A DNA stretch of 60,975 nucleotides. Origin: Patescibacteria group bacterium (GTDB taxonomy: Bacteria; Patescibacteriota; Minisyncoccia; Minisyncoccales; JAHCRE01). The notes under the pieces are model-generated. The model saw only the letters and a program-made list of their open reading frames with translations, did not search any database and was not told the origin of the DNA. Each line of letters opens with the position of its first letter. Within the stretch, counting starts at the first letter, position 1. The position numbers and the translations under genes were made by a program. The DNA lies in NCBI GenBank assembly GCA_020148025.1, contig JAHCRH010000002.1:1-60975 (forward strand), read 5' to 3'. This document shows, one piece after another, positions 1 to 37,691 of this stretch.

Positions 1-176
1 AAATTCCTCAAGGCACTGAATCAGGAAAAATTTTACGAATTTCTGGAAAGGGAATCCCTCATTTTTCAGGAAGAGGTCGAGGTAATTTGTATATGGAACT
101 GATTATTAAGACACCAAAGAAATTAACGAAAAAACAAAAAGAACTTTTAGAAAAATTAAGAAGAGAAGGGATGTAA
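1..176 (+). CDS. dnaJ: DnaJ (Hsp40) co-chaperone, C-terminal fragment (5' end outside window)
   Basis: Frame 3 reads IPQGTESGKILRISGKGIPHFSGRGRGNLYMELIIKTPKKLTKKQKELLEKLRREGM*, with stop TAA at 174-176. This is the typical DnaJ C-terminal GxLxVxVxxxTPxxLxxxQxELL pattern. Confidence 0.75.
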   Translation, partial: IPQGTESGKILRISGKGIPHFSGRGRGNLYMELIIKTPKKLTKKQKELLEKLRREGM

Positions 177-5726: not shown

Positions 5727-5960
5727 ATGAAGACCAAAAAAGAAAGAATTCATGGGTTCTGGCTGAAGTTTGACGAGGAGTTGAGAGAAGGAGTGCGGTA
5801 TCTCCGCGATGATTTGCAATACAGGGAGGCAAAGACACTTTTTGATGCAGCCCGCTTACAAGGCACTGCAGAATTCGAGGATGATTACGATCGGGACTGG
5901 ACCCTGACTTATAATCGCGGAGAGGGCACCTACACTTTAGTTCGCCGCCAACGAGAATAA
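5727..5960 (+). CDS. Hypothetical protein (77 aa)
   Basis: ORF with locally higher GC, followed by a B-family hairpin GCCCATCACTGGGC (5983-5996) oriented with the gene. Confidence 0.5.
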   Translation: MKTKKERIHGFWLKFDEELREGVRYLRDDLQYREAKTLFDAARLQGTAEFEDDYDRDWTLTYNRGEGTYTLVRRQRE

Positions 5961-6111
5961 GTTAGTCAACCAAACAAGAAAGCCCATCACTGGGCCCCGC
6001 ACCGTACGGTGCAGGGCTGGGCAATTTTTATTAGTAATATCAAATAGTAAGGAAGGGTAAGGGCAGTCATTAGTAAAATCCCTTTAATATTGTGCGATAC
6101 TTATTAGATAC

Positions 6112-6140
6112 TTGACAAGGGTTCTGGTCAGGAAGATAAT
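6112..6140 (+). promoter_or_regulatory. Consensus sigma-70-type promoter (TTGACA-17-GATAAT)
   Basis: TTGACA at 6112-6117, 17-nt spacer, GATAAT at 6135-6140. An M motif AATATTGTGCGATAC at 6086-6100 lies 11 nt upstream of the -35 box. Confidence 0.65.
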
Positions 6141-6146
6141 AGAAAG

Positions 6147-6325
6147 TGAGAGTTGTTCCTTGGGCAACTAAATCACCAATTATTGTCCTGAATGGACAGG
6201 AAATTTGAGAGCTGTTCCCAGAAAAACTCTCCCCCATTTTTTTATAAATGGGAAATAGCACCTTAACAAAATTCAGTCATCCTTACGAAAGGCACACTTC
6301 AATAAACGTGTGCCTCCCTTTTTTT
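6147..6325 (+). ncRNA. Candidate structured non-coding RNA, copy 1 (about 180 nt)
   Basis: It starts about 7 nt after the -10 box. Arms 6148-6168 and 6211-6231 are complementary (GAGAGTT...AACTCTC) around a 42-nt apical region. It shares a conserved 3' tail ATAGCACCTTAACAAAA..CAGTCATC..TTACGAAA and a terminator GGCACAC/GTGTGCC + T7 (6291-6325). No plausible ORF on this strand. Confidence 0.45.
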
Positions 6326-6438
6326 ATTTTTTCTTATATCCAAGAGCTCAGGAGCCTGTTTTGGGGAGGGTGGTTGGGAGTTGACAAATTTTAGAATTAT
6401 TGTAAAAATATAAATAAGTTAGCTTTTTAAAAATATGT

Positions 6439-7527
6439 ATGGAGGCGAGAATGGAGATGAAAGAGAACGATAAGATTCTATATTCTCTCAATGATTACGT
6501 AGCTCAACTCTTCAGTAAAGTACTGTACGCTACTAAGAATTCAAGAAGAAGATTAATTCTGGAAGCTTTTAATGAACATAAGACAAGAACTGAGGAGGAT
6601 ATCCAGCAATATCTTAAGAGGAAAGGCGTTATTAAAGATACTAGAGGGTACAGTAAAGGTAAGCTCAGAAAAAATCATTTAATTCCATTGGTAGAAGCCA
6701 AGATACTCGAAGAAGGAGAGGATCACTTATTTGAAATCACCTCATTTGGAAAAGAGATAAAACAAATAATTGGCAGAGTCAAAGAACTTGGCACCTTGAC
6801 CATATCTCCCCAACAAACGCTATATCCAGAGCGTGTTTTACTGAAATTACGAAAAGGAAGTAAGAGATATAGCAAACTCAAATCAAAAATATATATCTCG
6901 ACTTTCGAGAAAATCATACAAAAATTGGTAAACAGGGGCCTTGTTAGGGTGAATCATCCCTGTGGTTCGCCCCACATTCATTCACTCTCCCATTTCACTA
7001 CTTCTTCCTACTATCCATTTATCCAAAGCGTTAAGACTTACCCAGAAAGGACCGGCAGATCATGGTTTACAGAATATTCAATAACCCACTATTTAGCACA
7101 GGAATGGAAAGAAAAAGTTGGCAGACCCATAGATATAGATGAGATACGTGAACTCTTGAAAAAAGGCGTAGAAGTAGGCGATATCGTAAAAACCGATGGG
7201 AGCTACAAACCATCATCTATTAGTGATCCGCTTGAAAGCTTAAAAACGCCAGGTAGGAAAGTTTTTAATTCAATCAAGGAAGGCTACGATACTGTTCGAG
7301 AGATAAAAGATAAAAGTGGATTGTCTTTTGCATCAACCTACAAGATTCTATCGAGGTTGAAAGAAAAAAATTTAATCGAAGAGCACAAAGAGTATGTCAC
7401 AATTGAGTTAACAGAGAAGGGGAGAAAGCTTGCTGATTGCTTATTTCAAATAAAAGAATGCGTGATAAATTTTGTGTATACCCACAAGGCAGAATTTCAA
7501 GAAAGAGTTGAGGTTGAAAGCGAGTGA
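6439..7527 (+). CDS. Multi winged-helix (MarR/ArsR/TrmB-like) DNA-binding protein
   Basis: C-terminal TVREIKDKSGLSFASTYKILSRLKEKNLIEEHKEYVTIELTEKGRKLA is a classic wHTH, and two further wH-like segments lie upstream. SD GGAGG at 6441-6445 favours a start at ATG 6451. Confidence 0.55.
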   Translation: MEARMEMKENDKILYSLNDYVAQLFSKVLYATKNSRRRLILEAFNEHKTRTEEDIQQYLKRKGVIKDTRGYSKGKLRKNHLIPLVEAKILEEGEDHLFEITSFGKEIKQIIGRVKELGTLTISPQQTLYPERVLLKLRKGSKRYSKLKSKIYISTFEKIIQKLVNRGLVRVNHPCGSPHIHSLSHFTTSSYYPFIQSVKTYPERTGRSWFTEYSITHYLAQEWKEKVGRPIDIDEIRELLKKGVEVGDIVKTDGSYKPSSISDPLESLKTPGRKVFNSIKEGYDTVREIKDKSGLSFASTYKILSRLKEKNLIEEHKEYVTIELTEKGRKLADCLFQIKECVINFVYTHKAEFQERVEVESE

Positions 7528-7549
7528 AAATAAAGCAATTTGCTAATAA

Positions 7550-7581
7550 CCCACCAAACTTTTAGTTTAGTGGGTTTTTTT
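7550..7581 (+). terminator. Rho-independent terminator
   Basis: CCCACCAAAC / GTTTAGTGGG stem followed by T7. Confidence 0.7.
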
Positions 7582-7621
7582 ATTACAGCCCCGTTAATAT
7601 TGTGCGACATTTATTAGATAC

Positions 7622-7650
7622 TTGACAAGGGTTCTGGTTAGGATAATAAT
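7622..7650 (+). promoter_or_regulatory. Sigma-70-type promoter, paralogue of 6112-6140
   Basis: TTGACA at 7622-7627 and TAATAAT at about 7644-7650. M motif AATATTGTGCGACAT at 7596-7610. The block 7593-7656 is about 90 percent identical to 6083-6146. Confidence 0.6.
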
Positions 7651-7656
7651 AGAACT

Positions 7657-7875
7657 AGAGGGTTTCTTTGGGACAATAAGCTACCCTGGCCGGATGCGAA
7701 CCTCGAGATTGGCCTTATAGAGTAGAGGGTAGGAAAGAGGAAGGGGGATAAAGGAGAGTGTTCCCAAAGAAACTCTCTAATAGACGAGGATATAGCTCAT
7801 TATATAGCACCTTAACAAAATCAGTCATCATTACGAAAGGCACACCTCTGAATAAACGTGTGCCTCTCTTTTTTT
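7657..7875 (+). ncRNA. Candidate structured non-coding RNA, copy 2 (about 220 nt)
   Basis: Arms 7657-7675 (AGAGGGTTTCTTTGGGACA) and 7759-7778 (TGTTCCCAAAGAAACTCTCT) form a roughly 19-bp stem around an 83-nt variable insert that has its own CTACCCT/AGGGTAG stem. Same conserved 3' tail and GGCACAC/GTGTGCC terminator (7839-7875) as copy 1. Confidence 0.45.
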
Positions 7876-7989
7876 ATCTCATTTTTTTTGCGTCCGAGAG
7901 TTTTCTTAGAATCTTGTTTATTCTTGACAATTTTTATAAAAATATATAACATTGAATTAGAATTTAGTAAAAAAGGAGGGGATTAAAAA

Positions 7990-8343
7990 GTGGAAGGGAT
8001 AGCACAGAAAAAGGAAGAACTTTTATCTTCACTGAAACACAAGGTTGACCATTTGAAAGAGATGAAAGCTGAAAATCTTATCGATCACGTTGCTCACGAA
8101 GTACTTTATTTGGGTTTCATGGAATGGCTAAGGATTCTATTCAGTGCATTTCCTGGGTTCGAATGGCAAGGAAAAAAGGAAGCAATGGGTTTGGCCTTTG
8201 TACCGTATAAAAGATTTCTTTTTGACAGGTTCTTTATTGGGATAACTGAAAGAGTTCTTGATGGTTTCGGTGAAAAAGATAGAGAAAGACTGAGAGAAGG
8301 CGGTTGGCAGAAGTATCTTAATGCATATCGTGGTCTAGATTAA
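7990..8343 (+). CDS. Hypothetical protein (117 aa, GTG start)
   Basis: Strong SD AAGGAGGGG 8 nt upstream of the GTG. TTGACA-17-TAACAT lies upstream. No recognisable motif. Confidence 0.55.
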   Translation: MEGIAQKKEELLSSLKHKVDHLKEMKAENLIDHVAHEVLYLGFMEWLRILFSAFPGFEWQGKKEAMGLAFVPYKRFLFDRFFIGITERVLDGFGEKDRERLREGGWQKYLNAYRGLD

Positions 8344-8394
8344 GCAAGGCTCTTTTCCAATGGAAGTACAGCAACTTAACGTCAGGCATTTTAT

Positions 8395-8420
8395 GGCACA
8401 CCTCTGTGTGCCTGTTTTTT
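8395..8420. terminator. Bidirectional terminator between convergent genes
   Basis: GGCACAC-CTCT-GTGTGCC followed by a T-run. Same stem sequence as the two RNA-module terminators. Confidence 0.65.
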
Positions 8421-9375
8421 ATTCTCTTAGTTTTTTGCCACTATGAAATTTCCGATGGATTTCGCGCAATCTTTTACTTGTAACATGGGTGTAAATTTGG
8501 GTGCTGGTGATACTTCGATGGCCGAGGAATTCCTGAATAGTTCTTAAATCAACTCCTTGGGTCAAAAGATCCGTTGCCATGCTGTGACGAAGCGTGTGCG
8601 GCGTAGTAAAGATCGGGACACCGGCTAATATTGCATATTTTTTAACGATTCTTTCTATAGAACGAGCCGTTAAACGATTTTCTACACCTTTTCTGGCCCT
8701 ATAGTGAATAAATAGGGCTTTTACTTTATCTTTGCGAGTTTCTAAATATTGCTTAACCCAGGATAAGGCACGTTCTGAAAAATAGACGGTTCGAGGAGTA
8801 TCTCCTTTACCAATAATCGAAAGCTCCAAATCCTTTTTATCTCTTATGTTAGCGAATTGTTCTTTATTAAGGGCGACAAGTTCTGCTATTCTTAAGCCAG
8901 TCGAAAAAAAGGTCTCCAAAATAGCTCTGTCTCTTAAGCCAATCTTATTTTTCGTGTTAGGGGCTAATAAAAGCCGCTCAATCTGCTCTAGATTAAGGAA
9001 TTTAACGGTTTTTGCGCCTCTAGCGTCCTTTGGAAGCTTTATTTTGTCTGCCGGAAGTGAAACTATATCTTTGGCGGTAAAATAGCTTAAGAGGGCTCTC
9101 AGGGCGATTAAATAGTAGTTCTGGGTTATCTTTTTTAAAGGTTTGCCCTTATATGTGTGAAAACGGGATAAATATAAGCGGTAGTGCCAGATATCGTCTG
9201 TAGTCAGCTCGTGAGGCTTTAAATCTGCTTTATTTGTCTTTGTTAGCCAAGATTCGAATTTCCTAAGATAGCGCTTATAATTCTTTTGAGTATTATCTGA
9301 TAATCCTTTTTCTATCTCACAATAATCTAGAAAGTCGGGGATATGTTTTGTAATTGGTTTGTCAGATTTTTTCAT
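8419..9375 (-). CDS. Tyrosine site-specific recombinase (XerC/XerD-like integrase)
   Basis: Catalytic signature: GLRIAEL (Arg), HTLRHSMAT (H-x-x-R), LGHRSITSTQIYTHV (His, Tyr). N-terminal SAM-like core-binding domain. No IntI-type extra domain. Confidence 0.9.
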   Translation of the reverse strand: MKKSDKPITKHIPDFLDYCEIEKGLSDNTQKNYKRYLRKFESWLTKTNKADLKPHELTTDDIWHYRLYLSRFHTYKGKPLKKITQNYYLIALRALLSYFTAKDIVSLPADKIKLPKDARGAKTVKFLNLEQIERLLLAPNTKNKIGLRDRAILETFFSTGLRIAELVALNKEQFANIRDKKDLELSIIGKGDTPRTVYFSERALSWVKQYLETRKDKVKALFIHYRARKGVENRLTARSIERIVKKYAILAGVPIFTTPHTLRHSMATDLLTQGVDLRTIQEFLGHRSITSTQIYTHVTSKRLREIHRKFHSGKKLRE

Positions 9376-9387
9376 AAAAATATAAGA

Positions 9388-9429
9388 GCAGATTCTTGCG
9401 ACACTCGGGGGAGTGTCCGCAAAATCTGC
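9388..9429 (-). promoter_or_regulatory. Long hairpin in the recombinase 5' UTR
   Basis: GCAGATTCTTGCGACACTC-GGGG-GAGTGTCCGCAAAATCTGC: 19-nt arms with 1-2 mismatches, 13 nt upstream of the start codon. The arms contain an M-like TTGCGACAC. Confidence 0.5.
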
Positions 9430-9495
9430 GCCAGGTAAAGCGGGCTTATATCAGATAAGTCGATTTACCATCATTGTGCGACTATATCTATATTC

Positions 9496-9524
9496 ATAAT
9501 AAGGGGTCCAAAAAACCCTGTCAA
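9496..9524 (-). promoter_or_regulatory. Promoter of the recombinase gene (TTGACA-17-TATTAT)
   Basis: Minus-strand TTGACA at 9519-9524, 17-nt spacer, TATTAT at 9496-9501. An M-like motif (9475-9482) lies just downstream. Confidence 0.55.
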
Positions 9525-9632
9525 GTCCTCCCCCATCAAAAATACATGTCACTTTTTAGAAAGAACAAAAAAAGAGGGTCAATCCTTTTTGGAAAGCCCC
9601 TTGTTGACTTTCTTGGGAAGCTTTGTCTAGGC

Positions 9633-9848
9633 TTAGCAAGTTGTAATTTTTGCAATCTCCTTAAGCCGACCAGCTCCGCATAATCCTCGTTCTGCTTTGA
9701 AGGAGATTTTATCCCCTATCTTTATCTTAGTTATCCCTGCGCTCTTCAGACTCTCCTCGAGGATAAACCATTGGCCATGTCCTTCCCTTACATATACTCC
9801 CAATCCTGGTTTTATTTCTGTGACTTCTCCTTCTACTTTTCTTTCCAT
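9633..9848 (-). CDS. Hypothetical protein (71 aa)
   Basis: SD GGAGGTG 6 nt upstream of the ATG, plus a consensus promoter. Confidence 0.55.
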   Translation of the reverse strand: MERKVEGEVTEIKPGLGVYVREGHGQWFILEESLKSAGITKIKIGDKISFKAERGLCGAGRLKEIAKITTC

Positions 9849-9878
9849 TCTTTCACCTCCATTTTTTTGTGCTTCTAT

Positions 9879-9907
9879 TATATATACTCAAATAAAAAAT
9901 TTGTCAA
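9879..9907 (-). promoter_or_regulatory. Promoter (TTGACA-17-TATATA) with a tandemly duplicated -35 region
   Basis: Minus-strand TTGACA at 9902-9907 and again at 9920-9925, inside an 18-nt tandem duplication (AAAAATTTGTCAAGA-like unit, 9895-9930). Confidence 0.5.
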
Positions 9908-10039
9908 GAATAAAAAATTTGTCAAGATTAAACTAAAACCGTTAGTTCTTTACCCATCCGTAGCTTTAGCGGAGGAGGGCCTACCCCAACGGTTTTTTAT
10001 CGCATAATAAATATCGCACAATATAAACGCCGGGGAATG

Positions 10040-10438
10040 TTATTTAAATAATTCGCTCAGCGTTGCTGCGGCGCTCGGAGTATAATCCAATCCTTTCCAG
10101 TCATCTTTAGAAACCCATCTAAATTCAGTATGATCTTCATCTAATATAACTTCTCCGCTAATCGATTCAGCTCTAAAAGCATACACGGCTGTTTTGGTAT
10201 TTTCTTTCTTTCCGTGGGAATAGTAAAAAACATAAGAATAATCATCTAGGAGTTCTATTTCTAAATTAGTTTCTTCTTTTGCCTCCCTTTTTGCTGCCTG
10301 TTCTAAGCTTTCCTCGGTTTTAACATTTCCACCAGGTAGATTCCAGAGATTTGGAGAAACTTTGGAACGCGAGCTTCTTTTTAAAATAAGTACTCTATTT
10401 CGATTATCCGTAATAACAATGTTAACGCCTTTTTTCAT
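10040..10438 (-). CDS. NUDIX hydrolase
   Basis: Nudix box GGNVKTEESLEQAAKREAKEETNL. Confidence 0.85.
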   Translation of the reverse strand: MKKGVNIVITDNRNRVLILKRSSRSKVSPNLWNLPGGNVKTEESLEQAAKREAKEETNLEIELLDDYSYVFYYSHGKKENTKTAVYAFRAESISGEVILDEDHTEFRWVSKDDWKGLDYTPSAAATLSELFK

Positions 10439-10444
10439 ATTCTA

Positions 10445-10478
10445 ATTCTACCAAAAAATCGCCGTCCAGGCGATTTTT
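10445..10478 (-). repeat. A-family terminator-promoter module (representative)
   Basis: The minus strand reads AAAAATCGCC-loop-GGCGATTTTTTGGTAGAAT. Other copies: 11292-11320, 12839-12868, 13916-13950, 16046-16080, 18629-18666, 19379-19407, 24907-24937, 25667-25696, 46768-46798, 47786-47820, 48109-48139. Confidence 0.8.
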
Positions 10479-10496
10479 GATATATCTCTTAAAGTT

Positions 10497-11153: not shown

Positions 11154-11478
11154 CTTTATTTGCTTTTACGCCTTTTAAGGCTTGCCTAAGCTACCTTCTT
11201 GCCTCATTTTAACTTATTTCCAAGAATTTTCCCAGTATTTTTATACCCTATTATACCGCGTCCGCCCGAAGCTCGCAAGGAGCGAAGGAGGACCAAAAAA
11301 TCGCCTTTCAGGCGACTTTTAATCAGGGCCGAACTCCTGTCAAGTGGAAAAATACCACTCCCCTACAGATTCCACACTGACAAAAAACTAAAAGAATAAG
11401 GAATAAAAAAATAGGCGCACCGAAGTGTACCTTTGATTATGAAGATCTAAGTTGTTAAAGGTGCTATGAGAAAAGACT

Positions 11479-11871: not shown

Positions 11872-12109
11872 TATTAAATAATTAAAAAACCGTTAGTTCC
11901 CTACCCTAACAGTTTTCTCTCACCTATGAAATGTCGCACAATATTAAGATAAAAATAAAAATTGCCCAGCGCTGGGCTTTTTTGGTTTCTGCTCCATCTG
12001 TGCGACGATGTTAGAACCTGTTTTATTTATAGATTGTAAAAATAAAATCCCTCAAAATCGAGAGATTTTATTAAATCAAGGAAAAACGAAAAAGAAAAAG
12101 GGAATTCAT

Positions 12110-21148: not shown

Positions 21149-21292
21149 AAAAAATTATTAGATTTCTTTCTATTAGCAAATATATTTTATTGTGTCAAGG
21201 AAAGAAAAAATCCGATGAAATCCCTCAGACGAAAAAACTGCCCAGCGATAGGCTTTTGTTTGGCTCCGCCGCGCGCTGAGCAAAATAAAAAA

Positions 21293-21350
21293 CCGTTAGT
21301 TCCCTACCCTAACGGTTTTGCCTGTCAAATAATATACCTTAGCGACATTA
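21293..21350 (+). repeat. Junction repeat J1 (C-family hairpin plus degenerate arm-spacer-arm site)
   Basis: CCGTTAG-TTCCCTACC-CTAACGG (21293-21315), then ...TATACCTTAGCGACA. It lies in a divergent intergenic region, so it cannot terminate either flanking gene. Confidence 0.6.
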
Positions 21351-21482: not shown

Positions 21483-21512
21483 AAATTACAGGGTTTAAAT
21501 TTGGGTTTAATC

Positions 21513-21521
21513 TGGTATAAT
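21513..21521 (+). promoter_or_regulatory. Extended -10 promoter TGGTATAAT of the MTase gene
   Basis: An exact TGnTATAAT 30 nt upstream of ATG 21552. Confidence 0.5.
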
Positions 21522-21551
21522 GTATTAATAAATAAGACCGCACAAATTAAA

Positions 21552-23456
21552 ATGAACGGGATAGAAAAAGAAATTAATTACTTAATTGACAAATTCGGCA
21601 TAAAAAAAGAAAGGGCAATAATTTTAAGCTACTCTTTGCTCCTAAGAGATTATTTCCTGAATAATCTAGACAAACGGTATATGCCAAGAATTGAAAGTTT
21701 GATAGATTCACAGGTGGGATTTAGGATTGAAGATTATGACATACCTGATTTGATTATTAACGAGAATTTAAAAGAAACCCTAAACAATGGGGGGATAGAT
21801 ATAATAGGAATTTCTTACAATAAAATAATTGATAAAGAGCTAAGAAAGATTTTTGGCAAATTTTATACGCCCATTCCTTTAGTTGAACATGTATTGGATT
21901 CAATAAATTTATCTAAAAAACCGAATGGAACAGTTATGGATTTAGCTTGTGGTGCGGGGGTTTTTCTTTCCGCTGCAGTAAAAAGGTTAATTAGGCTAAA
22001 TTCTAGGCTAAATAATGAGGTTCTGTTAAATAAAATCATAGAACAAATTTATGGAATAGACATTGACGCTACTGCATGCACCTTAGCTAAATTAAGTTTG
22101 TTGGTATCAACTTTTCCTTTGTGGAAAAACATTATTCCCAAAAGAGATTTAGAAATTAAATTCAATATCTTTTGTAAAAATTCGTCACTCATTCCTCAAG
22201 GGCAAGTTTCATTATTTAAAACGGAAAGTAATAAACTCATTGAAAAATTTGACTTTGTTATAGGTAATCCGCCTTATATTGAGGCCAAAAAACTACCCAT
22301 TAAAGATAAAAAGATTTGTAGAAGAAATTTCCCAGATATAGCAAAGGGTGCATTTGATATATATATTTGTTTTATCGGCTTGGGCTTGAATCTTTTAAAA
22401 GAGGGAGGATATTTGGGTTTTGTTTTGCCAAATAAATTTTTAGTAGCGAAATATGCATCCCACATAAGAAAAAAGATTTTAGAAAATTATCACTTAACTG
22501 AAATTTGTGATATATCCAATCTAAAATATTTTGAAGGAACAGATGTTTATCCAATACTTTTAGTCGTTAAAAATAAAAAGGGAAAAGCCAAAATTAAAAC
22601 GATAAGCGGTCTAGAAAACAGGGATATGTTTGAGTCAAAAAAAATCAAATATATTAAAGTTGCACAAGAAAAATATAAATTATTAAATAAAATATTGCCT
22701 TTCTATTGTTTTGAAAAAGAAATTGACAAAAAAATACTATTTAAATTAATAAATGGAAAACAAAATAAATTGAGTGATTTTTTAGAAATTAAAACTACAG
22801 TATCTTTTCATGCTAAAGGACTAAGAGAAAAATATGTATCAAAAGACATAGACTCAAAGTATAGATACAAGTATCTAGGTGGGAAAAGCTATTCAAGGAA
22901 AAATGAAGTAAGAGCTTATCGTGTTGAATGGGATGGATATTATATCAATTATGATAATTTAGTTTTAAACAAAATAAATAATCCACTTCCACCGATTTCT
23001 AATTTCGAAAAGCCCAAAATTATATTCTGCCAGCATGCAAAAAGAATGTTAGCCTATACAGACATAAAAGGAGAGTGGGTCACAAAAGATGTTTTCCCAA
23101 TAGCGTTTCTGAAAGACAATGATGTTACTAAAACTTATTATTATACTGGCTTCTTAAACTCTAAAATTTTTTCTTTTATATATGGGGTAATTTACAAGGG
23201 AATACAAATTAGTGAGGGTTATTTTCATTTTCTCCCCAGCTTCTTGTCAGTAATTCCAGCCCCAGAAGAAAATAAATTAATAATAAAAAAAGTCGCACAA
23301 ATAGTGCAAAAATTACAAAAAAATAAAAGGATAGAAAAAAAATTAACGGAGAAAATTGATAAGCTCTTTTATAATTCTTTTAAATTAACCAAAGATGAAA
23401 TAGCCCGAGTAGAAATATATAACAAAAAATATCTAAACAAGTTTATAAGCCAGTAA
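21552..23456 (+). CDS. N6-adenine DNA methyltransferase (Eco57I/TaqI-like gamma class)
   Basis: FGKFYTP, motif I MDLACGAGVFL, motif IV VIGNPPYIEAKK, and a long C-terminal TRD. The tracked TTG start (21501) is replaced by the first ATG downstream of the promoter. Confidence 0.85.
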   Translation: MNGIEKEINYLIDKFGIKKERAIILSYSLLLRDYFLNNLDKRYMPRIESLIDSQVGFRIEDYDIPDLIINENLKETLNNGGIDIIGISYNKIIDKELRKIFGKFYTPIPLVEHVLDSINLSKKPNGTVMDLACGAGVFLSAAVKRLIRLNSRLNNEVLLNKIIEQIYGIDIDATACTLAKLSLLVSTFPLWKNIIPKRDLEIKFNIFCKNSSLIPQGQVSLFKTESNKLIEKFDFVIGNPPYIEAKKLPIKDKKICRRNFPDIAKGAFDIYICFIGLGLNLLKEGGYLGFVLPNKFLVAKYASHIRKKILENYHLTEICDISNLKYFEGTDVYPILLVVKNKKGKAKIKTISGLENRDMFESKKIKYIKVAQEKYKLLNKILPFYCFEKEIDKKILFKLINGKQNKLSDFLEIKTTVSFHAKGLREKYVSKDIDSKYRYKYLGGKSYSRKNEVRAYRVEWDGYYINYDNLVLNKINNPLPPISNFEKPKIIFCQHAKRMLAYTDIKGEWVTKDVFPIAFLKDNDVTKTYYYTGFLNSKIFSFIYGVIYKGIQISEGYFHFLPSFLSVIPAPEENKLIIKKVAQIVQKLQKNKRIEKKLTEKIDKLFYNSFKLTKDEIARVEIYNKKYLNKFISQ

Positions 23457-29009: not shown

Positions 29010-30254
29010 TTACGAATTTTTCCAAATAATGATGCTTTCTCTTGAGGGCTTTCTTTTAAATTTTTTCATTTGCTGAGCACTATTTCCTCTGTATCTGGCA
29101 ACAAATATGATATCAGTTGATAATCCTGTTTGTTCACCTATCTCAGCAAGTATTTCATCAACAGGAATATTAACACCTCCAAAACGAACATTGCTTATAA
29201 CAAGCCCTATCTTCCCGTTCTTTTTTAGATGTTTTTGCATCTGCAATAATGAAAGATACATATCTTCAAAATATCCTTCAATCATCTCGGGAATTTTTGA
29301 ATTGTTCAAACCTGCCTTTTTAACCTTAGTAATTATTTCGTCAATGGTTGAAGGTTTTTTATAACCATTAGACTTAAACTTCTTTCTTGCTTCGACATGA
29401 GATCTAAGTGTGTCATATCTGATTTGTTTTAATTCATCATTATCCCCAACAAAATTAAATATTAATTCAAGCCCATATATTCTCGTATAATCATGCCTAT
29501 TTGGATATGGTGGGGAAGTAATTATTGCATCAAATTTTCTCTTTGTTGAAAATCTTCTTGAATCTGATATTTTTGCATTTACCTTTGCATTAGTGAATTT
29601 TGAATTATCATTGAATTCTTCAACATCTTGAATCATTACTTCAACTTTTGATAGAAATTTCGGATATACTTCTTTTCCAGAAACATTTTTTTCATCAATT
29701 CGTAAAAAACCTCCCGCCTTTGAAGTATTGCTTACCGATTCAAGTATGCTTAGTAATCCCAACATATAGAAATCTCTCACTTTGAGATCTCGAATCATAT
29801 TAATCTTGTACTTTAGATAAAGTAATTCGTCTTTTACATCGTTACTAAAAGCCTTCTCTATAATTTTAATATCGGGCAAATAAGTATTCTTTACTGTTAA
29901 TTTACCATTTCTATTAAAATTCTTAAGTCGTTGTCTTAGTTTACAGGGCTCATACGTTCTCGTTTTGACGTTAGATAAAAATACTGAAAAAGGAAGTATA
30001 TCAAAACCTTTTGAATTAATACCCAACTCTTTGCATGCAAGTAATGTTGTGCCACTACCACAGAAAGGGTCTAGAACCCATGAACCCTTACTAAGTTTGA
30101 ATTCTTCAATTAGCTTTTCAACCAACCCTTTCGAGTAGCTATGTTTAAAGACATGCCAGTTATATATTGGTTTACCGCGGTCACTAAAAGGAGATATGAG
30201 TGGCCCATACTCATTTGTCTTCATAATAAGAGGAGCGATAGCCATATGTAACAA
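29010..30254 (-). CDS. N4/N6 DNA methyltransferase (motif I before motif IV)
   Basis: VLDPFCGSGTTLLA (motif I) ... AIITSPPYPNRHDY (motif IV). Its stop is 4 nt from the stop of the DUF262 gene (convergent). Confidence 0.8.
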   Translation of the reverse strand: MLHMAIAPLIMKTNEYGPLISPFSDRGKPIYNWHVFKHSYSKGLVEKLIEEFKLSKGSWVLDPFCGSGTTLLACKELGINSKGFDILPFSVFLSNVKTRTYEPCKLRQRLKNFNRNGKLTVKNTYLPDIKIIEKAFSNDVKDELLYLKYKINMIRDLKVRDFYMLGLLSILESVSNTSKAGGFLRIDEKNVSGKEVYPKFLSKVEVMIQDVEEFNDNSKFTNAKVNAKISDSRRFSTKRKFDAIITSPPYPNRHDYTRIYGLELIFNFVGDNDELKQIRYDTLRSHVEARKKFKSNGYKKPSTIDEIITKVKKAGLNNSKIPEMIEGYFEDMYLSLLQMQKHLKKNGKIGLVISNVRFGGVNIPVDEILAEIGEQTGLSTDIIFVARYRGNSAQQMKKFKRKPSRESIIIWKNS

Positions 30255-30509: not shown

Positions 30510-31808
30510 TTATGGGGACGATAATAAATCTCTAAGCTCTAGGGCATCATCAATGTTAAATTTCTTTTTACAGTAAGGGCATTCCATTGTTCTATCCAAC
30601 GATGACTTTCTTTTATTATGTAATTCTCTAGTGACCTCTCTTCTACAGAATGGACAGAAGAATTGTTCTCCACTAGGGTAGATGGCTCCTGAACCAGCTA
30701 TACCTAAATCACCGGGCCTAAAAGCTCTTGTAATATCTTCGCCCCTAATACCACTAACGCCTGTATCGTAGATTCTCTCAAAACCTCTATAATCACCGGG
30801 CCTAAAAGCTCTTGTAATATCTTTGCCCCTAATACCACTAACGCCTGTATCGTAGATTCTCTCAAAACCTCTATCGGGGCTGATAACTCCAACGCCAGCA
30901 TCAGAGATTCTATCAAGTCTGAAAACACCAGTATCAGGTCTGTCATATTCACTTCTCTCTTTAATTTCTTTTAAAGCTTGCTTTCTAACTTTCTTTTTGA
31001 TCTTTACATATTTTCCAGCTAATTCCATAAAATTATCTAATCGATACATATAAAAACTCATTTTAGTCTTTTCTACAAATTCATTGATAAGCTCTGGTCT
31101 TGGACCAATAATCTGATTTTGAGAAATTAACCACCAGTCTTCTTCCTTTTCGTCAGTAATCAAAATAACGCCTTTGTTTTCACTCGCAGCTTTATCAATC
31201 ATTTGTTTCCACATTACTAAGTCTCCATACTTTCTATTTCCTCTTTTTTCTTTCCTATCCTTGTAACCAGGTGGCACCTTTTCCTCGTACCTTTCCTTTC
31301 CTTCTCGGTAAATCTTTTTAAGATCCTTGCTAGAATACGGAGAACCAACTTTAGATTTAAATAGGCTAGAAATTTTTCTAATAATTTTGTCGTCGCTCAG
31401 TAGTTTCTTATACTTTTTCTTGCTAGCGTTTAACTCTTTTCTAATCTCTTTAAAAATCTCAGAAAGATCTTCCATAGTATCTTCCCTTATAAGATGACGC
31501 TTCCTGCGGTCTTTAAAGTCTTGTTCAATTTGATTAAGGGACTTAAAGATTAACTCGTGGGACTTTAACTGTTTTTCTATTACGTTTAGGCGATTCTTAA
31601 GACATTCTGAAGAAGCCTGATGAGACAACCAAATTCTTTCCTTAATTTTTGGCAAGGTTAAGATCCGAATAAATTCTTCTCTAGTTTTATCGGAGTACCT
31701 ATAAAGGTTCAATAAAACACTAGCATCGAAAGTAAAAATACAGCTATTCCATAAGCTTTTGAATTGTTTTTCGGATAGCTTGAAATATCCAGGAAAAGTT
31801 TTTTTCAT
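30510..31808 (-). CDS. PIN-like (DUF4935-type) nuclease-domain protein with a 28-aa tandem repeat and C-terminal zinc ribbon
   Basis: N-terminal FTFDASVLLNLYRYS, later ITDEKEEDWW. Repeats GFERIYDTGVSGIRG(K/E)DITRAFRPGD occur twice. C-terminal CPFC...CPYC. Confidence 0.6.
   Translation of the reverse strand: MKKTFPGYFKLSEKQFKSLWNSCIFTFDASVLLNLYRYSDKTREEFIRILTLPKIKERIWLSHQASSECLKNRLNVIEKQLKSHELIFKSLNQIEQDFKDRRKRHLIREDTMEDLSEIFKEIRKELNASKKKYKKLLSDDKIIRKISSLFKSKVGSPYSSKDLKKIYREGKERYEEKVPPGYKDRKEKRGNRKYGDLVMWKQMIDKAASENKGVILITDEKEEDWWLISQNQIIGPRPELINEFVEKTKMSFYMYRLDNFMELAGKYVKIKKKVRKQALKEIKERSEYDRPDTGVFRLDRISDAGVGVISPDRGFERIYDTGVSGIRGKDITRAFRPGDYRGFERIYDTGVSGIRGEDITRAFRPGDLGIAGSGAIYPSGEQFFCPFCRREVTRELHNKRKSSLDRTMECPYCKKKFNIDDALELRDLLSSP
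30708..30875 (-). repeat. 84-bp tandem duplication inside the PIN-like gene
   Basis: Units 30708-30791 and 30792-30875 are 82/84 identical. A degenerate third unit follows (about 30876-30950). Confidence 0.9.
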
Positions 31809-34742: not shown

Positions 34743-37691
34743 CTATCTCATTTCTTTCGTAGCTTTTAATTCTTCTACTAAAGCGTCATAAACTTTAGGT
34801 AACCATTCTTCAATCTGTGCATCAGAAAATCCTAAAGTTTGTAATATATTTTTATCCAATTCAACTCTTGCTGGGAATCTCTTTTCTAATTGTTCAATAA
34901 TAGAAGGGAATTCTACATTTGTTATTTTGTCAAAGGTTTTTAATAACGATTTCCTTTCGTTTTCGCTTAATCTATCAACATTAATAACATCAATAAGCGC
35001 CAAATCTGGCTGCATTATTTCAATAAGCTGTCCTGTGGTCTCACTTTTATTTAAAAACAACTGAACCAAATAGAGAATGCTATTAAGATATAATGATAAG
35101 ATTTTACTCTTTTTAGGGTTATCAATCTTAAATATCAGAAATTTATTGGTTGGAACAAATTTTGTATCAGAATAAACTGCTAAAAGATGAGTGTTGTCAG
35201 AATACAAATTAAATCTCCGGGGAATAGCTAAATTGGTTTTCGTATGCTCAGACTTATCTTTTACAAAATTCCAGTCGAATTTCCTTTTTTTATTCCAATT
35301 TGAAAATTTAATTATAGAATCAGAATCCTTAAAATCTGATTGTATTAAATAATCATGTTTCTCGTTTAATGAAATGGATTTTATTCCTGTGATAGTTTTC
35401 AATGCAGGAACGGTTTTATTCTTATCTATTCTATATCTAAACTTAGGTATGGATTTAATTTGAAATGAAATATTATTATTTTCTTCCCTTAAAAGAAGAA
35501 AGGCTCTTTTTTCCCTGCTTTTATCAGAGGGTCTTATTAAAAACACTATCTGGCTTAAGCCTGCGGGGTAATCTGGGAAACCGTATTGCAACCAGTCTTT
35601 TTCAATTTTAATCATTTTATCTTTAAATTGTTTGCATTGAGCTAAAAAGTTATCGATAACTCTCTTCCGTTTTAATGCCGAAAAGGCTAAAAAATACATT
35701 AAATTATACTTGTTTTCTAGTAACTTCTTATGTTCTATGAATTCAATTTCAAATTCCTCACACGAATACTGATAACCTGCTTTTGGATTAATACTCTTTA
35801 TTTCTTTAATCAGATTTCTTGCATCTATATCTGATAAATCTCTTATAGATTTTTTGAGAAATATTATTCCTGTTAAATCTTTGGGTTTCGGTTTCCTCTT
35901 TTGGGTAATGAAGAGTATGTCTCTAAATGCGGCGCCTTCACTAAAAGCTATCTCTCGAGTTGTTTTCAGAATATATTGAGTGTAATAATTCTTAAGGATA
36001 TAATCCCTTATTTGCTGAGTGGCTTCTCCTCGAGCTATATTTATCGGAATAACTAATCCCATCCTTCCTTTTTCTTTTAATAAATAATCTGCAAGTGCCA
36101 AGAAGAATCCCCAGAAATTTATTTGATTGCCGCATATTTTTATTAAATGCTGGAAATCTTTTAAATGTTCTTTGTATTCTTTTGGCATCTTGTGTCTATC
36201 GGAAAATGGCGGATTCATTAAAACTATATCTAGAGGCTTTAATATAAATTTCTCTCCTTTCCCACCTTCGAGCCCCACAGCGCCAGCACGCTCCAATACT
36301 TTTTCTTTGCCAAAAATAGTAAATTGGGCTAGAGTCTGAAATGGTTCAATAGGAATTCCCTCTTTGGTAAACTCTGGGCTTGATAATCTACTTTGAAGCT
36401 CTAATGAGTCCTGACAGCCTACCCTTACTTTATTTGTTATTGCATTAGGATTTTGAGCAGCAAGATTAACAGCTGTAAGATGAGAAGCGAATGGCATTAT
36501 GTCAATTCCTGTTATTTGCTCTTCTACAAATTTTTTATGAAGATTTTTCAATTGCAAAGAGGAATTGTCCTGTTTTTTTTGTTTATACAGATTAAATTTT
36601 CTCTTATAAGCGGCGACTAAAAGCGTTCCCGAACCACAGGCGGGGTCAATGACTGTATTGTCCCATTTATCAATTGTTAAGCCGGCGAGAATGTCTGCAG
36701 CTATAGGGTTCGTATAAAAAGCTGCTAACACTTTTCTTGTAGTTGGGGGTAATAATTCGTGATAAAGTCTTCCCAATAAATCATGGCTTACAAATTCTGG
36801 CTTTAGAATATTTATTGCTTTAATAATTTCTCTAACCTCTGCTACAATTTCTTTTTGATTTGGTAATCTAGAAGCTAGATCTACTGAATAAATCGCTTTA
36901 TAATTAATGTCAGTAATTTTTTTGAAGTAGCCCCTGAGGCTCTCGATAGAAGTTATTTTACCTTCATCTAACTTTTCTATTTTTCCTGTGGTCTCAGAAA
37001 ATACACGATAAAAAAGTATTTGGTTGCTGAGAAGATAGGGAATCAAATCAATAGCAGCAAGTTGAAGGTTCTCTATAGCCTTTTTAGTCTTTTCTATTTG
37101 TCCTAAACCTAAGAATAAATCGAATCTTCCAACCACTATATCTATTAATTCACTAATTTCCTTTTTGGTTCTTTGTGCTCTTAAAATCTCGGAAATTATA
37201 CCTATGCCAGTTCTTAATGTCTCGATAACAAGTTTAAATGATGTTTTCGTCTCTTTAGTGGCCAGGAATTCATCTATGGAAAATTTAAGCCTTGGGAATA
37301 ACTCCGAAGCCTTTACCGATGAAAAACTCTCATTAAAAAAATCAGAGAGGAAAATTGCGTTAACTTTACTTTCTGTCGTTAGGTGTCTTACTATCTCGGG
37401 CTTTATAAATAATGGAGTTCTTATTTGGGCCGGATACTCTATGACTAAAATACCGTCTCCTTTTACCTTCTGACAATAACCCCAAGCCTGGGTAATGCCC
37501 CGTAAAAGATTCTTTAAATATCTTCCAGTCCCTATTTTGATCTCGGCTATAAATCTTTTTGAATTGTAGAAACACTCAAAATCAAAATAGCCATGTCTAA
37601 TCCCTATAGCAGAGATGTTGTCAAAACCATTTGCTTTTAGTAGCTTTGATATTTCAGGATATAGGCTTTGTTCCGTTATCCTTTTCTTCAT
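34743..37691 (-). CDS. Type IIG/IIL-like fused restriction endonuclease-N6-adenine methyltransferase (982 aa)
   Basis: N-terminal FDFECFYNSKRFIAEIKIG (D-x12-ExK), motif I IDPACGSGTLL, motif IV VLMNPPFS, and a long C-terminal TRD-like region. Confidence 0.7.
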   Translation of the reverse strand: MKKRITEQSLYPEISKLLKANGFDNISAIGIRHGYFDFECFYNSKRFIAEIKIGTGRYLKNLLRGITQAWGYCQKVKGDGILVIEYPAQIRTPLFIKPEIVRHLTTESKVNAIFLSDFFNESFSSVKASELFPRLKFSIDEFLATKETKTSFKLVIETLRTGIGIISEILRAQRTKKEISELIDIVVGRFDLFLGLGQIEKTKKAIENLQLAAIDLIPYLLSNQILFYRVFSETTGKIEKLDEGKITSIESLRGYFKKITDINYKAIYSVDLASRLPNQKEIVAEVREIIKAINILKPEFVSHDLLGRLYHELLPPTTRKVLAAFYTNPIAADILAGLTIDKWDNTVIDPACGSGTLLVAAYKRKFNLYKQKKQDNSSLQLKNLHKKFVEEQITGIDIMPFASHLTAVNLAAQNPNAITNKVRVGCQDSLELQSRLSSPEFTKEGIPIEPFQTLAQFTIFGKEKVLERAGAVGLEGGKGEKFILKPLDIVLMNPPFSDRHKMPKEYKEHLKDFQHLIKICGNQINFWGFFLALADYLLKEKGRMGLVIPINIARGEATQQIRDYILKNYYTQYILKTTREIAFSEGAAFRDILFITQKRKPKPKDLTGIIFLKKSIRDLSDIDARNLIKEIKSINPKAGYQYSCEEFEIEFIEHKKLLENKYNLMYFLAFSALKRKRVIDNFLAQCKQFKDKMIKIEKDWLQYGFPDYPAGLSQIVFLIRPSDKSREKRAFLLLREENNNISFQIKSIPKFRYRIDKNKTVPALKTITGIKSISLNEKHDYLIQSDFKDSDSIIKFSNWNKKRKFDWNFVKDKSEHTKTNLAIPRRFNLYSDNTHLLAVYSDTKFVPTNKFLIFKIDNPKKSKILSLYLNSILYLVQLFLNKSETTGQLIEIMQPDLALIDVINVDRLSENERKSLLKTFDKITNVEFPSIIEQLEKRFPARVELDKNILQTLGFSDAQIEEWLPKVYDALVEELKATKEMR

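Follow-up and report, generated by a model that had tools for sequence, protein, structure and literature searches.

We analyzed a 60,975-nucleotide (nt) stretch of DNA from a Patescibacteria group bacterium (contig JAHCRH010000002.1; hereafter the window), in which two related intergenic units, at 6084–6325 and 7594–7875 on the + strand, lie among genes for a 77-amino-acid (aa) protein (5727–5960), a winged helix-turn-helix (wHTH) protein, a 117-aa protein, and Xer. An earlier inspection of the letters by themselves, here called the sequence-only reading, had described the pair as stand-alone transcription units for long-stem RNAs that adjoin a tyrosine recombinase. The adjacency holds, the recombinase being a XerC/D-like gene at 8419–9375. 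On balance, we favor the view that units 1 and 2 are paralogous members of a hitherto undescribed, lineage-restricted family of genes for small, structured non-coding RNAs, duplicated here. The two units contain the following features.

6084–6103, + strand: M motif upstream of unit 1, an exact match to TTAATATTGTGCGA; a general intergenic motif that is not specific to the units.
6112–6140, + strand: predicted unit 1 promoter, TTGACA-17-GATAAT, 11/12 consensus positions; putative start at ~6147.
6148–6231, + strand: unit 1 long hairpin, from the minimum-free-energy fold, arm delimitation, and pair table; P1 5′ arm 6148–6168, apex 6169–6213 (45 nt, including a small hairpin), P1 3′ arm 6214–6231.
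6232–6252, + strand: unit 1 small hairpin P2 (CCCAU...AUGGG), from the folds; optional in the family.
6253–6290, + strand: unit 1 conserved single-stranded tail with core AUAGCACCUUAACAAAAUUC, conserved in 8/8 units; mean predicted probability of being unpaired, P(unpaired), 0.97 for the core.
6291–6325, + strand: unit 1 predicted intrinsic terminator, GGCACAC, 10-nt loop, GTGTGCC, T7; stem conserved in all units.
7594–7613, + strand: M motif upstream of unit 2, by match to the motif consensus.
7622–7650, + strand: predicted unit 2 promoter, TTGACA-17-AATAAT, 11/12 consensus positions; putative start at ~7657.
7657–7778, + strand: unit 2 long hairpin, from the fold, arm delimitation, and pair table; P1 5′ arm 7657–7673, apex 7674–7761 (88 nt), P1 3′ arm 7762–7778.
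7804–7838, + strand: unit 2 conserved single-stranded tail; mean P(unpaired) 0.69 for the core.
7839–7875, + strand: unit 2 predicted intrinsic terminator, GGCACAC, 12-nt loop, GTGTGCC, T7, from the pattern and the fold.

An alignment of 6040–6345 with 7550–7900 revealed a conserved 5′ block and a conserved 3′ block, with nothing alignable between the stem arms. The 5′ block contains the M motif, TTGACA, a 17-nt spacer, and GATAAT or AATAAT, and the 3′ block contains the tail ATAGCACCTTAACAAAA(T)TCAGTCATCMTTACGAAA followed by GGCACAC-loop-GTGTGCC and T7. The ~90% identity that the sequence-only reading had assigned to both blocks agrees with the alignment counts, which give 56 of 64 positions (87.5%) for 6083–6146 against 7593–7656 and 91.8% over 73 columns for 6255–6325 against 7804–7875. 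Its consensus promoters and its GGCACAC/GTGTGCC terminator with T7 are likewise found in both units. The GGCACAC-N-GTGTGCC pattern occurs three times in the window versus zero in 100 shuffles, the third copy being absent from the earlier account. Overall, the region is not enriched in promoter-like sites (14 versus 11.2 ± 3.1 expected), and the promoters of the units are called from the quality of the match and from conservation in relatives. The complementary arms and unrelated inserts of the sequence-only reading stand, with insert sizes revised from 42 and 83 nt to 45 and 88 nt by our delimitation. The arms of unit 1 (6148–6168/6214–6231) pair imperfectly, with three bulges and one G·A, those of unit 2 (7657–7673/7762–7778) form 17 base pairs (bp) with one G·U, and the two inserts have no similarity to each other. 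In the predicted folds, both RNAs have a long hairpin on the 5′ side, a tail that is mostly unpaired, and the terminator, and the folding energies lie below those of shuffled sequences (z = −3.8 for unit 1 and −2.3 for unit 2).

Neither unit holds a credible open reading frame (ORF), as had been proposed. The only + strand ORFs over the units, of 48 aa (6248–6394) and 63 aa (7758–7949), run through the terminators and lose frame between the copies via 1- and 2-nt indels, and no ORF is conserved.

We compared the window with 34 fetched loci (L-numbered) and assembled a full set of eight units, consisting of units 1 and 2 plus six further units from five related contigs. L007, a metagenomic locus found by a degenerate tail pattern, contains two: unit A, the orthologue of unit 1 (~90% identical), is followed by the wHTH gene as in the window, and the second, diverged unit lies ahead of an unrelated gene for a 134-aa protein. 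The same locus has another stand-alone promoter-to-terminator stretch at 820–1040 (~190 nt), with no ORF and no Rfam match. A looser pattern recovered one unit in L010, a locus of the Patescibacteria metagenome-assembled genome (MAG) CR_Bin_039, and homologues of the 77-aa gene led to one unit each in L012 (identical to L013), L017, and L024 (identical to L025). All eight units share the TTGACAAG promoter with an extended −35, the long basal helix, the tail, and a GGCACAC-type terminator; a second small hairpin at the P2 position is present in 6/8 and lost in unit 2 and L012. Scans with the tail pattern gave no match in a viral collection, one true locus and two chance matches in a metagenome collection, and, in a genome collection, none and then one true locus with one chance match. 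No unit was found in the more distant relatives L021 and L026–L034, where synteny is lost. Judged by these few true loci and the unit-less distant relatives, the family appears narrow and confined to a Patescibacteria subclade of Parcubacteria-like MAGs.

The relatives also bear on whether the units could be 5′ leaders or attenuators of the wHTH and 117-aa genes. In the window, both units do lie upstream of these co-oriented genes. Each gene possesses a separate promoter, as the sequence-only reading had it, and the wHTH promoter is retained in L003, which has no unit. Thirteen homologues of the wHTH gene were found, and the six loci read (L001–L006) contain the gene with its own promoter and terminator and no unit beside it. 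The unit is thus not tied to the wHTH gene, and a functional pairing of the two was rejected. In L010, L012, and L024, the unit and xer are convergent, the unit lying on the 77-aa gene side of the xer 3′ end with no gene downstream, which rules out a leader or attenuator as the general function and leaves that explanation highly implausible. The description of the units as stand-alone and RNA-encoding fares better: five contigs keep promoter, stem, tail, and terminator, and three of them have no co-oriented downstream gene.

The basal helix P1 is maintained by base-pair changes. In a hand-anchored pair table of the eight units (128 cells), 119 cells are Watson–Crick, 6 are G·U, and 3 are mismatches (125/128 paired), and none of 2000 shuffles reached this pairing. 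Double-sided changes occur in 6/17 columns, for example A–U, C–G, and G–C at one position. From a MAFFT alignment of the full RNAs that had not been curated, RNAalifold recovered the inner P1 helix and the terminator. On that alignment, 89.4% of cells are paired versus 84.0 ± 1.2 in shuffles, and 7 pairs are changed on both sides versus 2.7 ± 1.2, neither value being reached in 500 shuffles. Sliding the partner by 1–3 columns left 30–58% of cells paired. The structure so tested was derived from the same eight sequences. The G·U cells pair on the + strand only (0.98 paired versus 0.94 on the opposite strand), which fits the orientation of the promoter and terminator. P1 thus appears from the alignments to be a genuine RNA helix, kept by compensatory and G·U changes, in line with the stem of the sequence-only reading.

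These changes weigh against two other explanations. The first takes the units as filler, in which generic promoter and terminator modules surround a decaying remnant and the hairpin is fortuitous. It draws on a genome full of near-identical terminator families and M motifs, in which close relatives differ by the gain and loss of hairpin modules between genes. Such filler would not explain why P1 is kept by compensatory changes across lineages whose neighboring gene shows 45–85% identity at third codon positions, why the tail core is nearly invariant over the same range, or why the unit is retained in L017 despite relocation within the locus, and we consider it improbable. The second, offered as an alternative in the sequence-only reading, views the ~20-nt inverted repeats around unrelated inserts as the terminal inverted repeats of a miniature transposable element (MITE) inside a promoter–terminator cassette. 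The arms are confined to the units themselves, present in the two units and in no dispersed copies, are not accompanied by target-site duplications, occupy an orthologous position in relatives, and co-vary like an RNA helix, G·U pairs included. They are almost certainly not MITE ends.

The most conserved element of the RNA is the tail. Its core, AUAGCACNUUAACAAAAU (AUAGCAC-N-UUAACAAAAU), hardly varies among lineages with diverged P1 sequences, and its predicted P(unpaired) is 0.68–0.99 versus 0.38–0.55 for the whole RNAs. In these folding models, conservation together with exposure would give the tail the look of a seed or a protein-binding site, and we infer that this conserved, unpaired stretch is probably what does the work. 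The homology of the units, the covariation of their helix, the conservation and predicted accessibility of their tail, their lack of coding potential, and their independence from downstream genes are results of this analysis, and we are largely confident that 6084–6325 and 7594–7875 are real structured-RNA genes. Actual transcription of either unit is inferred.

In the scheme that we propose, each unit would be transcribed from its own σ70-type promoter, with the extended −35 TTGACAAG, and transcription would stop at the intrinsic terminator, yielding predicted products of ~180 nt for unit 1 and ~220 nt for unit 2. From 5′ to 3′, the RNA would consist of the P1 basal helix (17–20 bp), a freely changing apex, the optional P2, a sequence-conserved single-stranded segment of ~20–35 nt (AUAGCAC-N-UUAACAAAAU...), and the GGCACAC/GTGTGCC terminator. 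The exposed tail would act in trans, by pairing with another RNA or by binding a protein, with P1 and the apex as a stabilizing or accessory domain. At the replication terminus, the gene would originally have had the conserved 77-aa gene on one side and the xer 3′ end on the other. The window lineage and the relative L007 carry two diverged copies: type 1 (unit 1), a simple long hairpin, and type 2 (unit 2), a variable hairpin plus a purine-rich, AGGAG-bearing strand that may form a second binding surface. A trans-acting mechanism based on the conserved tail is a tentative proposal, less likely than the RNA genes themselves.

Several observations count against this interpretation. The promoters and terminators of the units are sequence predictions. 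The covariation comes from only eight units (~6 independent lineages), two of them near-identical, and the shuffle counts overstate its significance because the units are related. Ten-mers complementary to the tail occur at chance level in the 61-kb window (7–8 versus 11 expected), with no excess of complementary 10- and 11-mers within it. Neither Hfq nor CsrA was detected by tblastn in the sequence analyzed, which is only a fraction of the genome. L014 and L016 hold no unit, the L017 unit lies elsewhere in its locus and not beside xer, and all three still have a promoter directed toward the xer 3′ end. Finally, a hidden Markov model of the 3′ part of the units showed that the tail and terminator also close two protein genes in the window. 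The tail conservation could for this reason reflect a general 3′-end function or a role at the DNA level, and not the seed of a small RNA (sRNA). The two additional copies are as follows.

8365–8420, + strand: third, degenerate tail and terminator, closing the 117-aa gene on its 3′ side and abutting the stop codon of xer (nhmmer E = 4e-7).
11405–11469, − strand: fourth tail and terminator, at the 3′ end of a gene for a 116-aa protein (nhmmer E = 9e-8).

The window at 8367–9526 and L012 at 6460–7634 form one continuous alignment that is 92.9% identical and runs into xer. Because this alignment is unbroken, we read the third tail as the original xer-adjacent tail, the positional orthologue of the tail of the L012 unit, which implies that ~590 bp, comprising the long tail, terminator, promoter, and 117-aa gene, were inserted in the window precisely at the 5′ boundary of this tail. 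After the fourth tail, on the same strand, comes a copy of the final ~30 nt of xer (~11,369–11,398), and the segment 11,369–11,428 is 85% identical to L012 6558–6498. The extra tails, 8365–8420 (+) and 11,345–11,469 (−), make up an inverted partial duplication that flanks xer and three other genes.

The recombinase at 8419–9375 matches the Pfam model Phage_integrase (4e-38) and, over its full length, the NCBIfam XerC and XerD models at ~220 bits, whereas the integron-integrase model TIGR02249 covers residues 234–302 only, at 80 bits versus a cut-off of 265. On these profile matches, it appears to be an ordinary full-length, housekeeping-type XerC/D-like protein at the terminus and not an integron integrase. 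Gene orientation changes from + to − at ~8.4 kb, and the GC skew changes sign at 8–10 kb; positions ~8000–10,000, next to the XerC/D-like gene, are probably the replication terminus. No recognizable dif site was found in this terminus region. In three relatives with no unit next to xer, a TTGACA promoter is aimed into the 3′ end of xer without an intervening terminator (L014 6800–6890, L016 7110–7170, and L017 7720–7781), which suggests a transcript antisense to xer. The interval between the 77-aa gene and xer was delimited as follows.

Window: 5960–8420.
L012: 6234–6528.
L014: 5235–6890.
L016: 5235–7170.
L017: 5235–7781.
L024: 5235–8965.

This interval contains a different gene set in every relative, each gene forming a single-gene module with its own promoter. 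The wHTH and 117-aa genes of the window are replaced elsewhere by genes for CAP, GDSL lipase, hexapeptide transferase, Gmad2, and GH3 proteins. Between L014 and L016, whose flanks are 99.7–100% identical, two to three genes are swapped, and the right breakpoint falls exactly at the M motif. This makes the surroundings of the units a hotspot for the turnover of single genes. The 77-aa protein on its border has 86 homologues and is conserved across many Parcubacteria. Its AlphaFold model is confident (pLDDT, the predicted local distance difference test score, 93.6), has the order β-β-α-α-β-β-β, and matches nothing significantly in the PDB, the best hit being a weak RelE/HigB-like resemblance (E 0.16, template-modeling score 0.47). 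The structure comparison was thus uninformative as to whether this neighbor could be an RNA chaperone, and that candidate was set aside.

The M motif, which the sequence-only reading had described as part of each unit, is indeed present in both and is not unit-specific, since the window has 11 occurrences of its TTGTGCGA core. A consensus of ~20 nt, TTAATATTGTGCGACATTTA, was built from 22 copies in the window and its relatives. The motif is intergenic, is in most cases followed by a CCGTTAG-type hairpin and a promoter, and is also found in L010, L012, L014, L016, L017, and L024. It may be a regulator site, a module boundary, or a recombination site. Its sites in the window are:

+ strand: 6090, 7600, 9474, 26,542, 30,448, and 39,044.
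− strand: 10,021, 11,941, 23,300, 37,959, and 40,430.

Other intergenic elements of the window are repeated as well. Seven repeat families (D1–D7) consist of 5–11 near-identical intrinsic terminators each, for example at 10,432–10,481, 11,958–11,986, and 21,283–21,326. Some repeated terminators are fused to an extended −10 promoter (TGGTAGAAT), and the intergenic regions look built from reusable modules. Farther along, Eco57I/MmeI-like methyltransferases, another DNA methylase, and a PIN-like gene (21,501–23,456, 29,010–30,254, 30,510–31,808, and 34,743–37,691) form a cluster on the terminus-proximal arm that looks like a restriction-modification or defense island. Within it, the gene for a 432-aa PIN_8-domain protein (30,510–31,808, −) contains an 84-nt tandem duplication (99% identical) at 30,707–30,874.

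This setting invites a reading at the level of DNA, in which the adjacent Xer would use the tail and terminator, or else the hairpin, as an attachment site or junction for capturing and shuffling promoter-bearing gene cassettes at the terminus, and the RNA would be incidental. Integron attC sites and the Xer-dependent dif modules of Acinetobacter plasmids would be analogues. A junction of this kind could account for four tail copies in the window that each close a different transcription unit, for the insertion placed exactly at the 5′ edge of the tail, for the piece of the xer 3′ end carried by the fourth copy, for interval genes that vary from relative to relative, including between L014 and L016 with their almost identical flanks, and for a locus at the GC-skew switch. 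It sits less well with the elements themselves. No convincing 11-6-11 dif-like dyad was seen in the tail, M motif, or terminator by eye, no formal test being made. Terminator loops of 4–12 nt fit a fixed recombination core poorly, the integron-integrase model matches the recombinase over its C-terminal ~70 residues only, and cassette turnover also takes place in the unit-less L014 and L016. The tolerance of P1 for G·U pairs fits RNA and not duplex DNA, a DNA site needs no conserved promoter and terminator, and homologous recombination between dispersed copies could yield the duplications. We regard a purely DNA-level element as quite unlikely. The chance is similarly slim that an RNA gene doubles as a recombination landmark, with the tail and terminator, possibly together with the M motif that starts each module, marking junctions for the capture, duplication, and swapping of promoter-bearing cassettes in an Xer-linked, integron-like platform of Patescibacteria; the related notion that the replaceable apical hairpin is a specificity module is less likely still.

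The apex of the hairpin evolves differently from P1 and the tail. The window and L012 are close relatives, with the 77-aa gene 93% identical (third codon positions 85%) and flanks 83–95% identical, yet the 5′ part of the unit 2 apex, which forms a hairpin, cannot be aligned with its counterpart in L012 or L010. The variable apex of the sequence-only reading is thus seen even between relatives with such similar flanks. The 3′ part of the apex in type 2 units (unit 2, L012, and L010) is a purine-rich strand of 30–45 nt, with 72–88% purine and 4–5 GGAG/AGGA motifs; the 3′ half of the unit 2 apex has a purine fraction of 0.86 and 4 such motifs. By contrast, the apex of unit 1 is 91% identical to that of its L007 orthologue, and a UGUCC-loop-GGACA tip is common to unit 1 and the distant L017 unit. 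From these comparisons, there are apparently two types of unit, with at least two recent replacements of the apical hairpin in type 2. Hairpin modules are replaced likewise in ordinary intergenic spacers of these genomes, and we accordingly read the apex variation as weak constraint combined with a high local turnover of hairpins, not as programmed variation. The Shine-Dalgarno-like AAGGAG in the type 2 apex was considered as the start of a gene and rejected, because a GUG or UUG lies only 1 nt on and no stop codon precedes the terminator.

The purine-rich strand is the main feature in favor of a protein-sequestering RNA of the 6S or CsrB/Rsm kind, in which the internal loop of the hairpin or this strand would titrate a protein or the anti-Shine-Dalgarno sequence of the 30S subunit and the tail would be secondary. 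The strand is kept in all three type 2 apexes, which otherwise differ, and is largely unpaired in the predicted folds. It is absent from type 1 units and from the second L007 unit, and the element that is in fact most conserved is the tail. The 6S, CsrB, and Rsm models have no match even at E ≤ 10, the 5′ and 3′ ends of the RNA are not paired with each other as they are in 6S, and tblastn found no CsrA in the fraction of the genome analyzed. We judge such a sponge unlikely.

The sequence-only reading had preferred a guide or specificity RNA. If such an RNA were programmable, its variable apex would carry the target specificity of some recombinase or nuclease. In favor of this, the paralogues combine unrelated apexes with a conserved basal helix and tail, the apical hairpin is exchanged between relatives as close as the window and L012, and a tyrosine recombinase gene is adjacent. 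The sequence-conserved part, in contrast, is a single-stranded tail and not a scaffold around a variable loop, and the type 1 apex is itself conserved between the window and L007. Neither insert has a match of at least 13 nt elsewhere in the window or among the loci, the phages of the collection, and IMG/VR, a weak test for short guides of 7–11 nt. Among the ORFs scanned, no nuclease, IS110/IS1111-type recombinase, TnpB/IscB, Cas-like, or reverse-transcriptase gene is linked to the units, which lie outside any mobile element. The recombinase present is a housekeeping-type Xer at the terminus, and Xer recombinases are not known to use RNA. A guide function is on these grounds very improbable, and the preference of the sequence-only reading was not borne out.

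No known RNA family accommodates the units. Rfam 15 at its gathering score finds only a tRNA in the window; at E ≤ 10, the units have no overlapping match on the + strand and a chance-level mir-1822 match on the − strand; and at E ≤ 1, the units of L007, L010, L012, L017, and L024 have no match. The Infernal/Rfam scan thus places them in none of the catalogued families. RsaE and RoxS are Hfq-independent, trans-acting sRNAs of Gram-positive bacteria that end at an intrinsic terminator. Like them, the putative genes described here are stand-alone and lineage-restricted, with their own promoter and Rho-independent terminator, and their predicted RNAs of ~180–250 nt combine structured domains on the 5′ side with a conserved stretch that is accessible as a single strand. 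They differ in having no Rfam match, in placing the conserved stretch just before the terminator and on two mRNAs as well, in the unusual changeability of the apical region, and in that no target or chaperone was found. Measured against what defines a stand-alone bacterial sRNA gene, the units have their own promoter and intrinsic terminator without dependence on downstream genes, and their P1 structure is conserved through compensatory changes in a small sample of eight units. By comparison of architecture, the unit appears to work most like an ordinary intrinsically terminated sRNA while belonging to no Rfam family.

Resemblances to other systems are partial. With 6S and CsrB/RsmZ, the units share a long irregular hairpin with a large internal loop and, in type 2, repeated GGA/AGGAG on an unpaired strand. 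In 6S (RF00013, no match), an RNA of ~180 nt, the 5′ and 3′ ends form a closing stem around a central bubble. In the units, the two ends do not pair with each other, the hairpin is much shorter (84–150 nt), and in all eight folds the 5′ end is paired to the central part of the RNA, with ~100 nt extending on the 3′ side. Unlike in CsrB/RsmZ, the GGA-rich strand is missing from type 1 and no partner protein is seen. IS110 bridge RNAs and IS1111 seekRNAs are likewise structured RNAs with conserved stems, a variable loop, and an adjacent recombinase gene, but are encoded in the non-coding end of an insertion sequence (IS) and work with a DEDD/RuvC-like recombinase that also has a Tnp domain, through loops complementary to target and donor DNA, whereas the units lie beside a chromosomal XerC/D-type tyrosine recombinase, with no IS boundaries and no loop–target complementarity found. 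An imperfect bulged hairpin with a variable terminal structure, an adjacent tyrosine recombinase, and a variable gene array recall integron attC sites and IntI. Integrons have one attC on the 3′ side of each, mostly promoterless, cassette, whereas a locus here has one or two units for two to four variable genes; the units have a promoter and terminator, and the cassettes have their own promoters. The stem bases, GAGAG/CTCTC, lack the R″/R′ boxes (RYYYAAC/GTTRRRY) of attC, and AAC/GTT stands next to the loop. An integron, whose IntI has an integron-specific additional domain, was rejected, the IntI model matching only in part and the XerC/XerD models over the full length. A retron msr-msd would differ by its reverse transcriptase, a domain seen in no ORF scanned.

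Regulatory RNAs of Patescibacteria (Candidate Phyla Radiation) appear little charted, and our literature searches found nothing relevant. The units described here offer a testable small RNA family with a defined architecture, a helix supported by covariation, and an exposed conserved segment with which targets or partners could be fished. If the tail or the M motif has no role at junctions, the family would amount to another orphan sRNA, of value mainly in annotation and as a candidate for a new Rfam family. If they are recombination junctions, they would reveal an exchange of single-gene modules in these tiny genomes.

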